Below are positions 39,433-49,044 of a stretch of DNA of 64,000 nucleotides, one piece after another (the first letter of the stretch is position 1; the number at the start of each line of letters is the position of its first letter). The DNA is taken from contig DITU01000007.1 in the NCBI GenBank assembly GCA_002422905.1, positions 16,076-80,075 of the forward strand, read 5' to 3'. A program made the translations under genes and the position numbers. The notes under the pieces are model-generated. The model saw only the letters and a program-made list of their open reading frames with translations, made no database searches and had not been told where the DNA came from. Source of the stretch: Verrucomicrobia bacterium UBA6176. Its GTDB lineage: Bacteria > Verrucomicrobiota > Verrucomicrobiia > Limisphaerales > UBA9464.

Positions 39433-40545
39433 ATGCAAGATTTCCCCTCACACAAACCCTTTTCTCGCATCCGCCTCCTCGTCCGCTTCGTCATCGGAGG
39501 TGCTCTCCTGGCCGACACTCTCGCTGCCCAGGACGCGCAATCCGGCGTCGGTCCACGGGATGACATCCGCCGGATCCGTGAACCGGCCGGCAAATGGCGG
39601 GTGGGTTTCGGATACGCCCATTTTCTGAATGTCCCCGCCCGGTTCCACGGCCTTGGCGGCAATCCCGCTGCCCTGCCCCTGCCTCCCGGCGGAACCCCCG
39701 GCTTCGGCGAATACGACGACGGCTACGTGCGCGCCGACATCAGCGGCGATACCACCCTCACCAGCAACTGGGGTTACTCCAACGACAGCCAGTTCGATCC
39801 CGCCAATGGCGGCAGTCTGGCTCTCTCCGTCACCCAGGGAATTGCCGGCGGCGGATCGAGTCACACCACGGAAAACGCTCCGGGCTTTGAACTGTTCGCC
39901 CTGCGCGAAATGGGCCGGGTGGAGTTCAATCAAACCGTCCTGCCCTGGGGATTCTCCAGCCGACTCCACTACGCCCGATTCGATGTCGAAGATTCCGGCT
40001 CGGTCCCGCTCAATGCACGTCGCATCACCGACCGGTTCGCCTTCAATGGCGTGATTCCGCCGCTCGCTCCCTACAACGGCAATTTCACCGGGCCTGGGGC
40101 CCTGATCTCCACCGCCGCATCGCGCACCGAATCGATCGTACCCGGAGGCTCCACCTCCCGCGGAATGCGCCAACTGGAAGTGGACCTGGTTTCATCCAGC
40201 TTCGGGGCCTGGATCGAGATCCCGTTCTCGGACCGTTGCTCCCTTGAACTCGAAGGCGGCATCTCCCTCGCCATCGCCGACGGCAGCTACGCGCATCAAT
40301 CCGAAGTCACCGGACCCGGCGGTGTCCTCGGGACCACCAGCGACCAGGATGACCGGACTTCACTCCTTCCCGGGTTCCACCTCGGGCTCGCCGCAACCTA
40401 TGGCCTCACCGAGCGCTGGGATTTCCTCCTCAGCGGCCGATACCAATACCTGGATGACTTCGCCATCCGCGCCGGTTCATCCGCCGCGGAACTGTCCTTC
40501 AGCCACTCCTTCGTCCTGACCGCCGGCGTCCGCTTCCGGTTCTAA
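39433..40545 (+). CDS. Putative outer-membrane beta-barrel protein
   Basis: 370 aa. Signal-like SRIRLLVRFVIGGALLADTLAAQ, alternating hydrophobic strands, and a C-terminal ...SFVLTAGVRFRF with a terminal aromatic residue typical of OMP barrels. Confidence 0.55.
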   Translation: MQDFPSHKPFSRIRLLVRFVIGGALLADTLAAQDAQSGVGPRDDIRRIREPAGKWRVGFGYAHFLNVPARFHGLGGNPAALPLPPGGTPGFGEYDDGYVRADISGDTTLTSNWGYSNDSQFDPANGGSLALSVTQGIAGGGSSHTTENAPGFELFALREMGRVEFNQTVLPWGFSSRLHYARFDVEDSGSVPLNARRITDRFAFNGVIPPLAPYNGNFTGPGALISTAASRTESIVPGGSTSRGMRQLEVDLVSSSFGAWIEIPFSDRCSLELEGGISLAIADGSYAHQSEVTGPGGVLGTTSDQDDRTSLLPGFHLGLAATYGLTERWDFLLSGRYQYLDDFAIRAGSSAAELSFSHSFVLTAGVRFRF

Positions 40546-40558
40546 CCCGATTTCCTCC

Positions 40559-47600: not shown

Positions 47601-49044
47601 TTTCGAAGGCGAGATCCTCAACGTCTCGCACCTCAACCCCGCCGGCACCGTTGCTGCACCCGGGTTCGACTTCTCCTTCACCCGGAACGCCAGTGGTCGC
47701 ATCAACTCCTCAACGCTCCTCGGCAACACCACCACCTATGACTACGACAACACCCACCAGCTCATCTCGGCCAACCACTCCGCGCCCGCCTTTCCCGACG
47801 AATCCTATACCGTCGATGCCAACGGCACCCGGATCGATTCGCACCGTGGCGGCAACGTGACGCTCAACGGCCGGGGTCTGCCCGCTCAGGATCAGCAGCG
47901 TTCCTATACCTACGACGCCGAGAACAACCTGGTATCCGAACTGGTGCTGGGAACCGGCAATGTCCGCTCCTTCACCTATGACCATCGGAACCGCGTCACC
48001 GCCATCATCACCCGGAATTCATCCGGTACTGTCCTCGATTCCATCTCGTTGCAGTACGATCCGTTTGATCGCCTGATCCGGCGTGACGTCAACGGCGCCG
48101 TCCTTTTCACCGTCCATGACCGCTCCAATCCGTGGGCCGACTACGACGGAAGCGGCAACGTCGTTGCCCGTTACCTTTACGACGTTACCGCCGACGGTCT
48201 GCTCGCCCGCTGGACTCCCGTCGGGGGCACCCAATGGATCCTGGCCGACCAGATCGGATCCGTCCGCGGTGTGGCCGGTTCCGATGGCACGGTTCAGAAC
48301 ACCATCGAATACGACTCCTTCGGGCGGGTGGTATCGGGTGAGAACAATCTGGCGGATCTCCGATTCGGTTTCACCGGCCGGGAGTATCTCGGTCGCGGCC
48401 TCTATCACTATCGAAGCAGGATCTACGATTCGGAGACCGGACGTTTCCTGTCCGAGGACGGAGTGAGGTTCGCCGCCGGAGATCCCAACCTGCATCGCTA
48501 TGTGTACAACGATCCGTTGAACCACATGGATCCGTCCGGGAGCATTTCCATTTCCTTCTCCCTTCCTGAACTCCAGATCACCCAGGCCATCTCCAGCACC
48601 GTGCGGGTCGGCCAACTCACCATCAGCAGGGCCGTCATCTATCAGACCATCGGGTCTGCGCTCATCACCCCGGCCATCGACGTGATCTGCCTCGCCCTCA
48701 CCGCCCAGGGCGACCGCATCACCGCCAAGCGCGTCGCCCTCCACATCTTCATCGGCGGCGCGCAGGGGGCCGTGGGAGGTGCCGCCGGGGCAGGCTTCGC
48801 CCGATTCGCCCAGGGCCGCATCGTCTTCGGCGGCGGGGCCGCGGGGTTATATCGGATGACCGGTGCACGAACCGGCATTCTGTTCGGAGGCGGGTTGGGT
48901 AGTCTGCTGGGCAACGGGCTCACCAAGCTCGGCACGGGGGTCGGAACCCTGGCCCCCGCCACGCTTCGCGGTGTCGGCCAGGCCGGCCTCGCCCCGGACA
49001 ACGATTGCGACAGCTTCTTCTATAACCTGCTGACCAATGATTGA
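41656..49044 (+). CDS. Giant Sec-signal Rhs/YD-repeat polymorphic toxin. Domains: dockerin-like, LamG-like, cadherin-like, 4 tandem ~120-aa modules, Rhs shell, glycine-rich C-terminal domain.
   Basis: 2462 aa. Signal SLLPRSTALFLLTLLAILPDARAQ. Many YD repeats, for example YRYDTNGDLVAVEDPNGG, FSYDSRGNLLTL and YEYDADGRRTAEIDPAGN. Core-end motif YRSRIYDSETGRFLSEDG...NLHRYVYNDPLNHMDPSGS, followed by a ~167-aa C-terminal domain. Confidence 0.9.
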   Translation: MNAASLPPFSPSSAMFMSLLPRSTALFLLTLLAILPDARAQFPPDPAELPQVIEPWINAGQPQRSMIQTIGVRFDRNVAGRVQPGTLRLRHVETGTEIDLSATELIYDPRNQSANWMLDRNPGALLPDGNYIGWIERDTLLDPARRALFEVNGLPLPDFTFSFHQLSGDSDGDRDVDFLDSSILRSAWQELLGAPLYQSFLDFDISDRVDEADRARVEATYFTLLPSRPAIHLFLQNDTGESPSDRATALYAVGMDTTDFAPVTTWTAGLNGGTGIDVTSRVGSGRAILDEAFLDQLNGAPLAPGLFQLRVEARDAGGTVVATDRLDFEYLGRVAYAPHFVSEPPPGVALGRVRAPEPLNLSTWTVESWPGSQTVSQWIIAPDGLSVEQTRNSRPSALVSDRSFQNLRVTGRFRVDTSSDDDLMGFIFGYQNNKQFYLFDWKQGSQGFVGGLALRGMSIKRVDAGDRVFTEPDFWWSDRDRENTTVLVAPNDIPWRDFQDYDISLEFSAGRIVVEVREAGTLLDRLEVEDNTFTGGRFGFYNYSQDSVIYSGFTQEFLDNVYSYDSEAIDPDGGTITYTLRDSPPGASLNPANGVLNWQPDAAGDFPFAIVATDPDGLTDVQEFNVRVSPVDLPPTVYIAKTSPALFPGDPVGIQVLAADDQQLAGVRLFIDGLEVTLDETRSITTQFTVPALIELRAVAVDSAEQVSEITSHIRVLDPASPVPDQPGTIAVAPPGQTTGTTSDLRPRVSFQAPRSTNDDPTRFIGTVHPNGGILDEWALEWAPLARVDTANLASPAVLWQALAQGTNSFDAAELATIVPSQFPDEPIAFRLRARNVTGLGSMVSVVFNPRRSSTTGPGQVTGTGSGVRPVASFNAPLSPADDRTLLRGTVSTTGTTLQRWFLDYAPQNRVNTTNLLDPAVNWTLLEQGAAGFTNNLLTTLDPADFPNQTFVFRLTAVSTGGLGSVATVVFNPVATDFSGPTDSTGSSPGTAIRPLTRITAPTKPTDDRSVLVGTVSANGGALANWIVDYAPRSQVNAEDLTDPAVAWTRLAEGSSEATLAPLASLSDPAFNNGVWILRLQAFNTNGLGSLATIQFDSGDTSTPSVALTAPAPESDIGFLTEVRGTIGAGSGVLDSWKLEIAPSEEVSLNTLNNPNASWVELGSGNSPVQNGRLGTLDPTLLRNGSYVLRLRAFNSNGRGLADGLLIHVSGEAKLGNFRLEFEDLNIPLAGVPIRVRRIYDTLNANRSGDFGHGWSLDIGDPEIRETVPDTGDSYFFATPFEIGTRVFLTNPEGRRVGFTFNVRNPRNRFLYVDHEPFFEPDPGVYDILTIAPSDYERVQVDEAGAVYTPLLPFGYNPDRYRLTTREGTVYAYDQRTGLQRITDRAGQFVTFTRSAITHSSGQAVALTRDSRGRITRITAPDGSATQYRYDTNGDLVAVEDPNGGVTSLSYLRRPAHYLDRIADPVDAARGRHTRRVIYEDGRFARVEDGDGNVIASQSNQPGQFDGTRTDALGNVTQLLYDTRGNIVREVSPTGAVTLIEYGDPANPDKETALVDPNGNRTTFSYDSRGNLLTLTAASGTVHQTTYDAFNRPVQAVIRSAQGMTNISVRVVRDTGGRPIEVRDQLGRVRTLQYDPSGRITQFTDYDGSVRTFEYDSTNPHRHPNRVTIGGDTFRFTYNSRGLPLEITDQRGNLTTFRYDAMGNLLERRTGSNEPTRFLYNSNNDVVRVVDPMGRIKEFSYDSARRLIEDITVVTDNGDSSDDIVVRYSHDIAGRLTAITDPNGRITRYEYDADGRRTAEIDPAGNRIASVYDGNGNIVRHTDRRGYVRTFAYDSHNRQIREDWLDPVTGEVVESIGAEFNAFGALTGIQDSSTRYRMTYGMNGMLMSISNFGSQGQPQVSLMTAYHSSGLISAITDNTGVRVGRSHSANGDLTGTTWSGASLAPHHVQFQHDPDGLPTEVARHAALNASALVSRTRIERDPFEGEILNVSHLNPAGTVAAPGFDFSFTRNASGRINSSTLLGNTTTYDYDNTHQLISANHSAPAFPDESYTVDANGTRIDSHRGGNVTLNGRGLPAQDQQRSYTYDAENNLVSELVLGTGNVRSFTYDHRNRVTAIITRNSSGTVLDSISLQYDPFDRLIRRDVNGAVLFTVHDRSNPWADYDGSGNVVARYLYDVTADGLLARWTPVGGTQWILADQIGSVRGVAGSDGTVQNTIEYDSFGRVVSGENNLADLRFGFTGREYLGRGLYHYRSRIYDSETGRFLSEDGVRFAAGDPNLHRYVYNDPLNHMDPSGSISISFSLPELQITQAISSTVRVGQLTISRAVIYQTIGSALITPAIDVICLALTAQGDRITAKRVALHIFIGGAQGAVGGAAGAGFARFAQGRIVFGGGAAGLYRMTGARTGILFGGGLGSLLGNGLTKLGTGVGTLAPATLRGVGQAGLAPDNDCDSFFYNLLTND

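Follow-up and report, generated by a model that had tools for sequence, protein, structure and literature searches.

The window we analyzed is a 64,000-nt stretch of Verrucomicrobia bacterium UBA6176 (GCA_002422905.1, contig DITU01000007.1 positions 16,076-80,075). It contains three co-oriented genes that encode an outer-membrane beta-barrel protein, a partner, or "scaffold," protein, and an Rhs/YD-repeat polymorphic toxin (Table 1); the first-pass annotation had this layout, the ORF coordinates, and the lengths right. The barrel and partner genes are separated by a 13-nt gap (...TTC TAA cccgatttcctcc ATG), as first described. The 4-nt ATGA overlap reported between the partner and Rhs genes (...gaATGAatg) depends on the choice of Rhs start codon: the overlap exists if Rhs starts at 41656, whereas a public gene call begins at M15 (41698), which yields a 2448-aa protein and a gap of 38 nt. 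The orthologs as called have gaps of ~20 nt. Reading from sequence, we found signal-peptide-like N-termini on all three proteins. That of the barrel is ...LLADTLAA/QDA, and Rhs, if started at M15, has a signal peptide of classic form, MFMSLLPRSTALFLLTLLAILPDARA/Q, consistent with the cleavable-looking signal originally noted for this protein; the Rhs orthologs at loci L008 and L011 have signal-peptide-like starts too.

Table 1. Coordinates of the three genes and their features within the window
Feature	Position	Strand	Basis
Outer-membrane beta-barrel protein, 370 aa	39433..40545	+	ORF, AlphaFold2, Foldseek
Barrel motif YDDGYVRxDxSG..T.NWGY, residues 94-117	39712..39783	+	family alignment
Second conserved barrel motif GVIPPLAPYxGxFxGPG, residues 206-221	40048..40095	+	
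Partner ("scaffold") protein, 366 aa: signal peptide, cohesin-like module, CTD	40559..41659	+	
Cohesin-like module of partner, residues ~21-182	40619..41104	+	Foldseek vs PDB
Partner CTD, ~185 aa, two predicted beta-sandwich subdomains	41117..41656	+	co-occurs with barrel
Rhs/YD-repeat polymorphic toxin, 2462 aa (2448 aa from alternative start 41698)	41656..49044	+	
Rhs signal-peptide-like N-terminus, MFMSLLPRSTALFLLTLLAILPDARA/Q	41698..41775	+	read from sequence
Dockerin-like module of Rhs, residues 168-218	42157..42309	+	Pfam Dockerin_1 positions 2-53 of 57
TSP_C lectin-like (residues 374-554) and He_PIG Ig/cadherin-like (562-629)	42775..43542	+	
Big_7-like domain, then ~125-aa beta-rich repeats, residues 641-1210	43576..45285	+	read from sequence
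YD-repeat shell and Rhs-associated core	45286..48540	+	Pfam, PDB relatives
Polymorphic C-terminal toxin, 167 aa	48541..49041	+	

We scanned 33 window proteins with Pfam and detected no PAAR, VgrG, Tc, or T6SS domains, in agreement with the earlier reading of the window. Of the few short or doubtful ORFs at 32-38 kb outside this set, three (32313-33677, 33436-34365, and 38350-39015) have no PDB sequence relative.

The Rhs protein and its toxin end

Pfam identifies the largest gene product as an Rhs protein (RHS_repeat, E=6.6e-70; Rhs_assc_core, E=1.4e-15). The shell comprises RHS_repeat in 11 stretches, YD_repeat_2x, and Rhs_assc_core at residues 2219-2295, ends at the self-cleavage motif ...NDPLNHMDPSG, and has PDB relatives in 7q97 Rhs, the 9pt5 teneurin-like protein, and Tse5. 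Pfam detected no PAAR, VgrG, DUF4150, SpvB, or TcdB domain in the protein, and no NHL propeller; strictly speaking, it is therefore not teneurin-like. Two domains ahead of the shell, previously called LamG-like and cadherin-like, are present under other family names: the first is TSP_C (Pfam E=1e-28; PDB thrombospondin/COMP, 5e-19) and the second is He_PIG (Pfam E=3e-9). Both are presumed to be target-binding parts. The region between them and the shell, which we read from its sequence as a stalk, is 39-65% identical across triad orthologs.

The last 170 aa of the protein are 17.6% Gly, contain glycine-zipper motifs and a single strongly hydrophobic segment of ~28 aa, which was reported as two that overlap, and end with ...CDSFFYNLLTND. 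We found no Pfam or PDB relative of this toxin end, and its relatives at L008 and L011 are ~33% identical to it. In the Rhs proteins of L028 and L029, the cores are 88.5% identical and the C-termini only 26%. We consider it a putative and probable membrane-permeabilizing toxin; a bacterial teneurin-like protein permeabilizes membranes through its CTD, acting from the periplasmic side (PMC13018210), and Tse5 likewise has a glycine-zipper pore-forming C-terminus (PMC10684867). We found no immunity gene downstream of Rhs at any locus examined, an uncommon arrangement if this polymorphic toxin is antibacterial.

The barrel, the partner, and their distribution

AlphaFold2 models the 370-aa protein as an all-beta barrel (pLDDT 74), and Foldseek matched this model to the outer-membrane barrels Ail, OmpX, OmpA, Pla, OmpT, OprG, and FadL (probability up to 1.0, TM low), with the EspP autotransporter barrel at low rank; these results support the original assignment of the protein to the outer membrane. 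Its C-terminus, ...GVRFRF, is a beta-signal. The barrel family, which is uncurated, comprises 1,923 clusters at 50% identity, almost exclusively from Verrucomicrobiota. It corresponds to no specific Pfam or NCBIfam family, only to the generic OMP_b-brl, which matches the 370-aa barrel weakly (E=0.0086) and 6 of 16 family members (best 4e-6); Pfam gave no Omp85/POTRA, autotransporter, or DUF560 match to the barrel. The motif at residues 94-117 is invariant or near-invariant across the family, and the monomer model has pLDDT <50 at residues 78-95 and 102-117. We propose this motif as a candidate contact site for the partner CTD. The second conserved motif is also of low confidence in the monomer model. 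One family member has SH3b-like domains, probably periplasmic, fused to the barrel N-terminus.

The partner CTD is predicted to form two folded beta-sandwiches, not a linker or hairpin, with the motif QTGLLEQ...LEYYRPSR in subdomain 1 and ...EF...Y.IEYSDDL..W...IQWLDNGPPKT...RFYRL in subdomain 2. It is always C-terminal, ending 2-15 aa from the stop codon, and none of 21 CTDs matched a Pfam or NCBIfam family. The CTD caps many unrelated adhesin-like proteins, nearly always beside a barrel of the same family as the 370-aa protein. An adjacent, same-strand CTD-ending protein (186 to >3,300 aa) was present in 32 of 37 loci found via the barrel. Searching with a CTD-only motif gave 75 loci with room to be counted, 64 of which had an adjacent barrel (median distance 40 nt) and 11 of which did not. 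Over the 64 cassettes, CTD identity and barrel identity were correlated (r=0.856, a value reached in 0 of 2000 Mantel permutations), and for both barrel and CTD, paralogous cassettes within a genome diverge more than orthologous cassettes between genomes. The cassettes have no other conserved neighbors, and their cargo is of extracellular type (ice-binding-like, Ig arrays, choice-of-anchor D, MBG, DUF11, DUF642). The last ~65-aa CTD subdomain is also found by itself with no barrel, as at window positions 25956-27332. Judging from these sequence comparisons, the barrel is predicted to pair with the partner CTD and not with Rhs, and barrel plus CTD is a two-gene cassette of general use, with many cargos other than Rhs and with the Rhs triad as a special case.

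The N-domain of the partner (model pLDDT 73) matched type I, II, and III cohesins in a Foldseek search of the PDB (probability 1.0, target TM 0.63-0.69, rmsd 3.9-5) and did not match Pfam Cohesin; the assignment is by fold alone, and beta-sandwich folds are common. Each partner has one such module (16 loci), longer partners add lectin/CBM-like parts, and the module is confined to partners adjoining a dockerin-bearing Rhs. In the dockerin-like module of Rhs, a helix follows each of the two EF-hand-type loops (GDSDGDRDVDFLDSSILRSAW, LDFDISDRVDEADRARVEATYF). In the window protein, the match that had been proposed is below threshold (E=0.057 when the whole protein is searched and 0.0068 when only its N-terminus is; 17 bits against a Pfam cut-off of 22.9), but 10 of 12 Rhs orthologs have a Pfam dockerin match (best E=9.7e-6), and the core GD.DGDRDVD is invariant across orthologs. 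A cohesin-like/dockerin-like contact, which was not part of the first-pass annotation, is the likely link between partner and Rhs, and we infer that the two modules bind physically.

The co-occurrence of barrel, partner, and Rhs is conserved elsewhere in Verrucomicrobiota, in at least 12 distinct Verrucomicrobiales loci representing many independent genomes. The order barrel, partner, Rhs is found in the window and at L001/2/12, L008, L011, L013, L014, L015 (the isolate Haloferula chungangensis), L027, L028, L029, and L044, with barrel-partner gaps of 2-18 nt and identities to the window that reach 75% and fall to ~25-30% in L027-L029, the most distant triads. At L082 the order is permuted to partner, barrel, a dockerin/PKD protein, and a DUF6531+RHS protein, and at L004, L009/L010, and L091 partner and Rhs occur without an adjacent barrel. 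The partner-Rhs pairing is present in every locus with room (~15 distinct), extends to ~30% identity, and survives the change in gene order.

Proposed surface tethering and alternative explanations

We give roughly an even chance to the explanation that the three genes form a module that tethers a Sec-exported Rhs polymorphic toxin to the cell surface. In this model, all three proteins would reach the periplasm via Sec, and the barrel would insert in the outer membrane and specifically engage the ~185-aa CTD of the partner. The barrel and CTD cassette most likely anchors varied adhesin-like cargo at the cell surface, and possibly aids export. In the Rhs version, the cargo would be cut down to a scaffold whose cohesin-like module engages the dockerin-like module close to the Rhs N-terminus, so that Rhs is held on the cell with its lectin-like and Ig-like domains and YD shell facing outward, and the shell would enclose the self-cleaved, polymorphic, glycine-rich C-terminal toxin, which probably permeabilizes the target membrane. 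Physical barrel-CTD binding, surface topology, and the activity and target of the toxin are predictions of this model. If correct, the conserved triad suggests an undescribed surface display of Rhs toxins without an injection machine.

Barrel and partner had been proposed to form a dedicated export or display route for Rhs. Surface display is the best reading of our data, but export by so small a barrel is not: we prefer an anchor to an export route because a barrel domain of ~320 aa could not plausibly let a folded Rhs cage through. The unit is indeed conserved, but the barrel is matched to the partner CTD rather than to Rhs. Because Rhs has no CTD of its own, the model leaves outer-membrane passage of this ~270-kDa protein unexplained. 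Also weighing against the model are the sub-threshold dockerin match in the window protein, the fold-based cohesin assignment, the CTD and partner-Rhs loci that lack an adjacent barrel, the freestanding CTD subdomain, and the lack of an immunity gene.

A possible, though doubtful, alternative is that the barrel is a translocator and not just an anchor, as in a split autotransporter or minimal two-partner system, with the barrel and BAM threading the CTD protein outward from its C-terminus and the partner capturing Rhs. The extreme C-terminal position of the CTD, where autotransporter passengers meet their barrel, is consistent with this, as are the restriction of conservation to two genes with no other neighbor as a possible pore, cargo that can exceed 3,300 aa and in which we found no other export signal, and the low-ranking EspP match. 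However, the size of the barrel domain, the lack of Omp85/POTRA, autotransporter, or DUF560 matches, and the two folded beta-sandwiches predicted for the CTD argue against it, and the nearest analogue, PorP/SprF with a type B CTD, is an anchor that needs a separate translocon (PMC9143113). This alternative overlaps the anchor model, the role of the barrel being the sole difference, and Rhs would still need another exit.

It is unlikely that the complex faces the periplasm, with the barrel storing partner and Rhs under the outer membrane until they are freed by lysis, vesicles, or envelope damage. The three proteins bear a Sec signal only, there is no evident outer-membrane translocon in the window or beside any cassette, and the SH3b-like domains of one barrel family member fit such a location; yet the lectin, Ig, PKD, ice-binding, and CBM-like domains of Rhs and cargo typify extracellular proteins, and the choice-of-anchor D domains of the cargo normally go with surface-sorting signals. 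Calcium-dependent dockerin modules also work extracellularly, as they do in cellulosomes, where they function outside the cell.

Chance neighborhood, in which an ordinary Sec/T2SS-secreted Rhs toxin lies beside an adhesin cassette, seems slightly more improbable still. Signal-peptide RHS toxins without signature neighbor genes are included in Zhang et al. 2012 (PMC3482391), and the barrel is missing at some partner+Rhs loci. Against this explanation, the partner-Rhs pairing is maintained across divergent and reordered loci, the cohesin-like module occurs solely beside dockerin-bearing Rhs proteins, and the intergenic gaps are very short. Finally, most characterized diderm Rhs toxins are T6SS cargo and the closest solved Rhs cores are T6SS-associated, but that Rhs is a T6SS (or Tc-type) effector with its machinery elsewhere in the genome was already disfavored and is highly improbable, given a signal-peptide-like N-terminus (window, L008, L011) that would take it out of the cytoplasm, where the T6SS loads cargo, its lack of PAAR, VgrG, DUF4150, SpvB, and TcdB domains, its N-terminus made of extracellular adhesion modules, and the absence of T6SS or Tc genes from the 64-kb window and the 10-kb flanks of orthologous loci.

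Relation to known systems

In Bacteroidota, T9SS type B CTD proteins anchor on adjacent PorP/SprF-like barrels (Gorasia et al. 2022, PMC9143113). As in the Verrucomicrobiota cassette, the gene for a large Sec-exported surface protein with a conserved beta-rich CTD adjoins a gene for a ~300-350-aa outer-membrane barrel, with many paralogous cognate pairs per genome; the T9SS barrel is the surface anchor of the CTD. In contrast, the 16 barrels and 21 CTDs examined here have no PorP_SprF, CHU_C, or type B CTD matches, and the host phylum is Verrucomicrobiota, whereas the cited reviews call T9SS Bacteroidota/FCB-specific. Moreover, no SprA/Sov-type translocon is known for the Verrucomicrobiota cassette, and the cohesin/dockerin relay to a second protein is without a T9SS counterpart.

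The partner resembles cellulosomal anchoring scaffoldins in combining a cohesin fold, optional lectin/CBM-like parts, and a cell-anchoring end, and its Rhs client carries a two-loop dockerin-like module; this likeness is one of fold, with binding predicted. The client here is an Rhs toxin instead of a glycoside hydrolase, and anchoring is by a CTD on an outer-membrane barrel (diderm) instead of SLH/sortase (monoderm).

The window Rhs shares with T6SS Rhs effectors (Tse5, RhsA, Photorhabdus Rhs1 7q97) a YD shell, a core with DPxG self-cleavage, and an encapsulated polymorphic toxin. Unlike them, it begins with a Sec signal instead of a PAAR/VgrG-binding N-terminus, has ~1,200 aa of extracellular-type domains ahead of the shell, and has neither T6SS context nor an immunity gene. 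Type Vb two-partner and type 11 (Slam/DUF560) systems likewise place a dedicated outer-membrane protein gene beside the cargo and recognize a conserved terminal domain. TpsB is a 16-stranded Omp85 protein with POTRA domains that recognizes an N-terminal TPS domain, and Slam is a DUF560 barrel with TPR repeats; the Verrucomicrobiota barrel matches no such family, and the recognized domain of its cassette is C-terminal.

A Sec signal on an Rhs protein is not exceptional in itself: RHS toxins are listed under "T2SS/Sec-dependent" in Table 1 of Zhang et al. 2012 (PMC3482391), and WapA (Bacillus/Streptococcus) and bacterial teneurin-like proteins are Sec-dependent YD-shell toxins (Raoelijaona et al. 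2026, PMC13018210). Like the window Rhs, these have a signal peptide, N-terminal adhesion or anchor modules, and a YD shell, carry a small polymorphic toxin at the C-terminus (membrane-active in BiTLP), and lack an injection machine. However, they anchor themselves by cell-wall, S-layer, or lipoprotein parts within their own chain, they have no described accessory genes, and the papers state that their delivery machinery is unknown, whereas here anchoring appears to be handed to two conserved accessory genes and no immunity gene was found. In Akkermansia muciniphila, YD-repeat proteins were detected among those of the outer-membrane fraction (PMC4960237), in keeping with the surface-tethering model.

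Organization and conservation of the Rhs triad

The three co-oriented open reading frames (ORFs) reported by the first-pass annotation, which encode a barrel protein, its partner and an Rhs protein, were all recovered on the + strand (see the table). The 13-nt gap after the TAA of the barrel gene was also recovered; the reported 4-nt ATGA overlap between the partner and Rhs genes holds only if Rhs starts at 41656. Starting Rhs at M15, as the public gene call does, leaves a 38-nt gap to the partner gene and gives the protein a textbook signal peptide (MFMSLLPRSTALFLLTLLAILPDARA before Q), and in called orthologs the gap before Rhs measures about 20 nt. 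Under either start, the three genes are tightly packed. The GC3 of the three ORFs (0.75 to 0.79) equals that of neighboring housekeeping genes, and there is no sign of a foreign island.

Coordinates of features in the window and, where a locus is named, in related loci
Feature	Coordinates	Strand	Description
Respiratory cluster	5281-16743	-	cbb3-type oxidase subunits COX1, FixO, cytochrome c; beside the oxidase, alternative complex III (ActD, NrfD-like, 1,113-aa Fe-S protein, multihaem cytochrome)
Secreted-looking protein	25956-27332	-	458 aa; no known family; next gene encodes a 548-aa coiled-coil protein
Low-GC stretch	36000-38300		GC 0.56 versus 0.60-0.67 elsewhere; small ORFs only (113-164 aa)
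ORF between low-GC stretch and barrel gene	38350-39015		221 aa; no known family
Barrel gene	39433-40545	+	370 aa
Partner gene	40559-41659	+	366 aa
Rhs gene	41656-49044	+	2462 aa; alternative start M15 at 41698 (2448 aa)
thiD	49065-49994	-	phosphomethylpyrimidine kinase (Pfam E=9e-81); convergent, 20 nt past the Rhs stop
ORF after thiD	49997-50260	+	87 aa; presumably translation initiation factor IF-1, by reading of the sequence
Three tandem paralogs just downstream of the Rhs locus	50383-54180, 54177-57932, 58513-62499	+	1,250-1,330 aa; numerous FG-GAP repeats plus an ASPIC/UnbV domain (CRTAC1-like); 4-nt overlap between the first two
Ice-binding-like cassette cargo	L050:843-3251, L059:5248-6558, L086:233-2161
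Permuted locus	L082:4371-12152		dockerin-like/PKD/FlgD_ig protein of 814 aa; Rhs may be split or frameshifted
Second type of Rhs C-terminus	L004:18900-19834		shared with the end of L015

The rest of the window holds housekeeping genes (alkaline phosphatase, pyruvate kinase, DD-carboxypeptidase, thymidylate synthase and glycosyltransferases), together with genes for a cbb3-type oxidase, alternative complex III and a LamG protein. As the first reading had it, none of the 33 window proteins scanned belongs to a T6SS, PAAR, VgrG or Tc family, and the same scan found no T9SS or secretin families. A promoter and terminator scan gave nothing above shuffled controls, and no Rfam families or tRNAs were found within the window.

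In at least 12 distinct loci the triad recurs with its gene order (barrel, partner, Rhs) unchanged. Its carriers are metagenomic contigs, metagenome-assembled genomes (MAGs) of Verrucomicrobiales, Roseibacillus, Luteolibacter and Akkermansiaceae, and the isolate Haloferula chungangensis CCUG 61920. The most distant triads (L027-L029) share about 25-30% identity with the window and the nearest as much as 75%, and the barrel and partner homologs are few and unnamed. In the metagenome locus L082 the order is permuted to partner, barrel, dockerin/PKD protein and DUF6531+RHS, which indicates that the association survives a change in gene order. Directly upstream, that locus has a gene of pseudopilin-like type (N_methyl + DUF1559). 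The partner and Rhs occur without an adjacent barrel in three or four loci (L004, L009/10, L091). Taken together, we consider it highly likely that the three genes form one functional unit.

The barrel family and the C-terminal domain beside it

The model and sequence of the 370-aa protein bear out its putative assignment as an outer-membrane protein: it has a signal-peptide-like N-terminus, a ...GVRFRF end and an all-beta barrel model, and the C-terminal F is invariant (16 of 16 sequences). The AlphaFold2 model has long antiparallel strands (pLDDT 74, pTM 0.62), and its Foldseek matches were outer-membrane barrels only (Ail, OmpX, OmpA, Pla, OmpT, OprG, FadL). Because the Foldseek probability reached 1.0 but TM was low, the barrel belongs to no solved family. 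The generic Pfam profile OMP_b-brl, sub-threshold in the window barrel, was matched by six of 16 family members, and NCBIfam gave no match.

Two motifs, YDDGYVRxDxSG...NWGY and GVIPPLAPYxGxFxGPG, are near-invariant in the barrel family, and both map to low-confidence regions of the monomer model. We infer from their being conserved yet unstructured alone that they are a candidate partner-binding surface. The 16 barrels scanned against curated families are 310-390 aa long, and the whole family forms 1,923 clusters at 50% identity (E<=1e-3), or 659 at E<=1e-30. In the genome collection, all come from Verrucomicrobiota, bar one Victivallales MAG and one unclassified 'bacterium' MAG. Among long family members we found no fusion of the barrel with the C-terminal domain described below; the extra N-terminal parts are SH3b-like domains or low-complexity linkers.

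The all-beta partner divides into three domains (residues 26-176, 182-275 and 295-365). Neither the whole protein nor its last ~185 aa (here, the C-terminal domain or CTD) matches a Pfam or NCBIfam family, and profile searches found no PDB relative of the CTD or of the barrel. Most loci found through the barrel lack Rhs; there, the CTD is the extreme C-terminus of another large protein beside the barrel. We examined this cassette from both sides, using narrowed alignments for the CTD and barrel locus searches. In the forward direction, 32 of 37 barrel-found loci had a CTD-ending protein as the immediate same-strand neighbor of the barrel. These cargo proteins range from 186 to >3,300 aa, and the CTD stops 2-15 aa short of the stop codon. 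In the reverse direction, we scanned metagenomes with a motif found in the CTD only, [IVT]QWxDxGPPK, and 467 of 479 matches to this one narrow motif were confirmed as CTD relatives. Scoring the best 80 loci, of which 75 had room for a neighbor, we found a barrel directly beside the CTD gene in 64 of the 75 (85%; 62 downstream and 2 upstream), at a median distance of 40 nt. When the flanking ORFs of all 123 loci were clustered, no further gene proved to be conserved, be it for a translocon, a chaperone or immunity.

Across 64 non-redundant cassettes, pairwise identity among CTDs was correlated with that among their barrels (r=0.856, a value confounded by phylogeny; none of 2000 Mantel permutations was as high). 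Two paralogous cassettes within H. chungangensis (L015 vs L038) share 40% identity in the CTD and 29% in the barrel, and orthologous cassettes between genomes share 70 and 63% or 63 and 52%, respectively. The paralogs are thus more diverged than the orthologs, a pattern expected of cognate pairs. We hold with high confidence that barrel and CTD are such a pair; that the pair serves surface anchoring or export is the reading we somewhat favor.

Cassette cargo is of extracellular type, comprising ice-binding-like domains with Ig arrays (the commonest), choice-of-anchor D, MBG repeats, DUF11, NHL and DUF642. Choice-of-anchor domains take their name from their location upstream of alternative surface-sorting signals, so choice-of-anchor D in the cargo fits the CTD as a surface-sorting signal. 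In this commonest cargo, an ice-binding-like domain (DUF3494) precedes Ig-like arrays of the ASH/Cep192/HYDIN type, and many of the metagenome loci (L045-L123) come from peat, soil and lake metagenomes. Elsewhere in the window, the 458-aa secreted-looking protein has at its end just the final CTD subdomain of ~65 aa (...RRYEVETSGDLKGW...VRFFRVLSRE), preceded by an Asp-rich thrombospondin-type-3-like stretch (DDDTDEDGMPDDWE...DSDLDGESN). No barrel gene lies beside it, so this terminal subdomain is more widely spread than the full barrel-linked CTD.

The Rhs toxin and its proposed link to the partner

The Rhs protein has a signal-peptide-like N-terminus of its own, as the first-pass annotation had noticed, and so do its orthologs in L008 and L011. 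Behind the signal peptide lie an Ig-like domain and, at residues 168-218, the dockerin-like module; these are followed by another beta domain, a lectin domain of the thrombospondin-C type (TSP_C, E=1e-28; PDB thrombospondin/COMP, 5e-19), He_PIG, and a run of ~125-aa repeated domains spanning about 570 aa. The YD shell (Pfam RHS_repeat, E=6.6e-70 over 11 stretches; TIGR01643, E=1.8e-52; PDB Rhs cores down to 1.5e-38) leads to the Rhs-associated core (TIGR03696, E=1.4e-15, residues 2219-2295) and then a 167-aa C-terminus.

A predicted self-cleavage motif of the PxxxxDPxG type, NDPLNHMDPSG, ends the core. Across the final 600 residues of the core, the Rhs proteins of triads L028 and L029 share 88.5% identity, against 26% in the C-terminus, and such variation after the DPxG motif is the signature of polymorphic toxins. 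Triad Rhs C-termini fall into several unrelated types (six to seven by reading) and are mostly short and either hydrophobic or glycine-rich. That of the window is 17.6% glycine over its last 170 aa, with repeated small-xxx-small motifs and a single strongly hydrophobic segment of some 28 aa, which was called as two overlapping ones. It has relatives of ~33% identity in L008 and L011, no relative in Pfam, and none in the PDB by single-sequence search. A second type, common to L004 and the end of L015 (...ISINVSFSISINLRNVQAQYL...RQYLDFRGFARIDV...), is not glycine-rich and has no family match. Our best guess for the window toxin is a putative membrane-permeabilizing activity, by analogy with Tse5 (PMC10684867) and the BiTLP CTD (PMC13018210).

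No immunity gene was found downstream of Rhs in eight loci. In the window, thiD and the 87-aa ORF right after Rhs leave no room for one, and downstream of Rhs in L004, L008, L009, L011, L028 and L029 there is no conserved or plausible ORF. Given this absence, the target of the toxin may not be a sibling cell. The lectin-like and cadherin-like domains of Rhs would suit a eukaryotic or otherwise foreign surface.

Rhs carries no CTD of its own, and the partner may provide the connection. The top Foldseek match of the partner N-domain (residues ~21-182) is the cohesin dyad 3l8q (E=5.5e-7), and single type I cohesins (1ohz, 1aoh, 6kgf, 3ul4) align with target TM 0.66-0.69 and rmsd 3.9-4.6. The Pfam Cohesin profile has no match in the partner, so the likeness is by fold alone. 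In Rhs, two EF-hand-type loop-helix segments (GDSDGDRDVDFLDSSILRSAW and LDFDISDRVDEADRARVEATYF) make up the dockerin-like module. Pfam Dockerin_1 scores 17 bits in the window protein, below its cut-off of 22.9, and is matched by 10 of 12 orthologous Rhs N-termini (best E=9.7e-6, positions 2-53 of 57). Both loops are conserved among orthologs, and the loop residues are invariant. A protein-database search with the N-terminal 309 aa of Rhs returned three weak matches and missed known orthologs.

Each partner has exactly one cohesin-like module, and longer partners gain lectin/CBM-like N-terminal parts. The module occurs only in partners next to a dockerin-bearing Rhs, and every such partner with room for a neighbor adjoins one (about 15 distinct loci). 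We give about even chances to a putative cohesin-dockerin relay from partner to Rhs.

A possible display route, its alternatives and known systems

If this relay exists, the triad could work as follows. The barrel, the partner and Rhs would all be exported by Sec; the barrel would insert in the outer membrane and specifically capture the CTD of the partner, leaving the partner exposed at the cell surface. Rhs would then dock through its dockerin-like module, in a Ca-dependent manner, on the cohesin-like module of the partner. Contact with a target would be made via TSP_C, Ig and the repeat stalk, and the self-cleaved C-terminal toxin would be released into the target membrane. This scheme draws on moderate-confidence monomer models, a cohesin likeness by fold and a sub-threshold dockerin match in the window, and its steps do not include how the partner and the ~270-kDa Rhs cross the outer membrane.

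The barrel itself could do the translocating, on the model of a split autotransporter or of a minimal two-partner system, which is compatible with anchoring. The complex of barrel, partner and Rhs could also face the periplasm. That the neighborhood is irrelevant to Rhs is poorly supported, given that the pairing of partner and Rhs is invariant. Also poorly supported is Rhs as T6SS cargo: the signal-peptide-like start is conserved (window, L008, L011), no PAAR or VgrG family was matched at E<=0.1, and neither the 64-kb window nor the flanks of orthologous loci hold T6SS genes.

We place the window toxin with the Sec-dependent Rhs/YD-shell toxins, to which WapA, the bacterial teneurin-like proteins and the 'T2SS/Sec-dependent' RHS class of Zhang et al. 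2012 belong; no signature neighbor is listed for that class (PMC3482391). Teneurin-like proteins are defined by an NHL propeller, whereas the window Rhs has none (no NHL or TEN_NHL match at E<=0.1; compared with the bacterial protein of PMC13018210). It resembles 9pt5/9ifo most closely across the Rhs-associated core. The Tc toxin pair TcB/TcC was also rejected, since no SpvB/TcdB-type or TcA Pfam families occur in Rhs or its neighbors. In Akkermansia muciniphila, YD-repeat proteins have been found in the outer-membrane fraction (PMC4960237), which suggests that such proteins associate with the outer membrane in Verrucomicrobiota. The relay from partner to Rhs resembles the anchoring scaffoldin of a cellulosome.

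In gene logic the cassette comes closest to the T9SS, where PorP/SprF-like barrels encoded next to type B CTD proteins serve as their anchors (PMC9143113). In both systems the CTD cargo gene lies beside the gene for its cognate barrel, a likeness of logic that is no evidence of homology; 16 barrels and 21 CTDs gave no match to PF11751/TIGR03519 or CHU_C/TIGR04131 at E<=1. The T9SS is considered to be confined to Bacteroidota/FCB (PMC7463736, PMC12398890). The 16 barrels also lack matches to the PorP_SprF, Omp85/POTRA, DUF560 and autotransporter families, and type Vb (TpsB) and type 11 (Slam) were rejected on the absence of Omp85+POTRA and DUF560.

The first-pass annotation had proposed an undescribed delivery mode. 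Sec-signal Rhs proteins without a T6SS are already known; the accessory pair is apparently new. A non-exhaustive literature search turned up no earlier account of a CTD/barrel system from Verrucomicrobia, nor of Rhs proteins carrying cohesin or dockerin modules. Within the curated libraries and papers searched, the conserved accessory pair and its derivation from a widespread barrel+CTD cassette appear to be new. Tentatively, and with rather less confidence than in the relay itself, we suggest that barrel and CTD make up an as yet undescribed system of sorting and anchoring at the outer membrane that spans Verrucomicrobiota, with the logic of type B CTD/PorP and unrelated components in a phylum lacking T9SS, and that one lineage, adapted via a cohesin-dockerin relay, is the first known dedicated display apparatus for a Sec-dependent Rhs/YD-shell toxin in a diderm.

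For one phylum, the locus offers a concrete, testable answer to how display and delivery can work without an injection machine in Sec-dependent YD-shell toxins, among them Rhs proteins, WapA-like proteins and the bacterial forebears of teneurins. The toxin gene is accompanied by two accessory genes, of which one encodes an outer-membrane barrel and the other a barrel-matched CTD joined to a cohesin-like module that would fit the dockerin-like module of the toxin. The analysis also uncovered a large, uncurated two-gene cassette that probably governs surface display of many adhesin-like proteins in Verrucomicrobiota. The secretion biology of this phylum is poorly known, and the cultured carrier H. 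chungangensis makes experiments possible.

In the T9SS, PorP is tethered to the cell wall through PorE. One member of the barrel family (P0106, 619 aa) has two SH3b-like domains and a Pro/Ala/Ser-rich linker fused N-terminal to the barrel, which hints, by analogy, at cell-wall tethering of some barrels.
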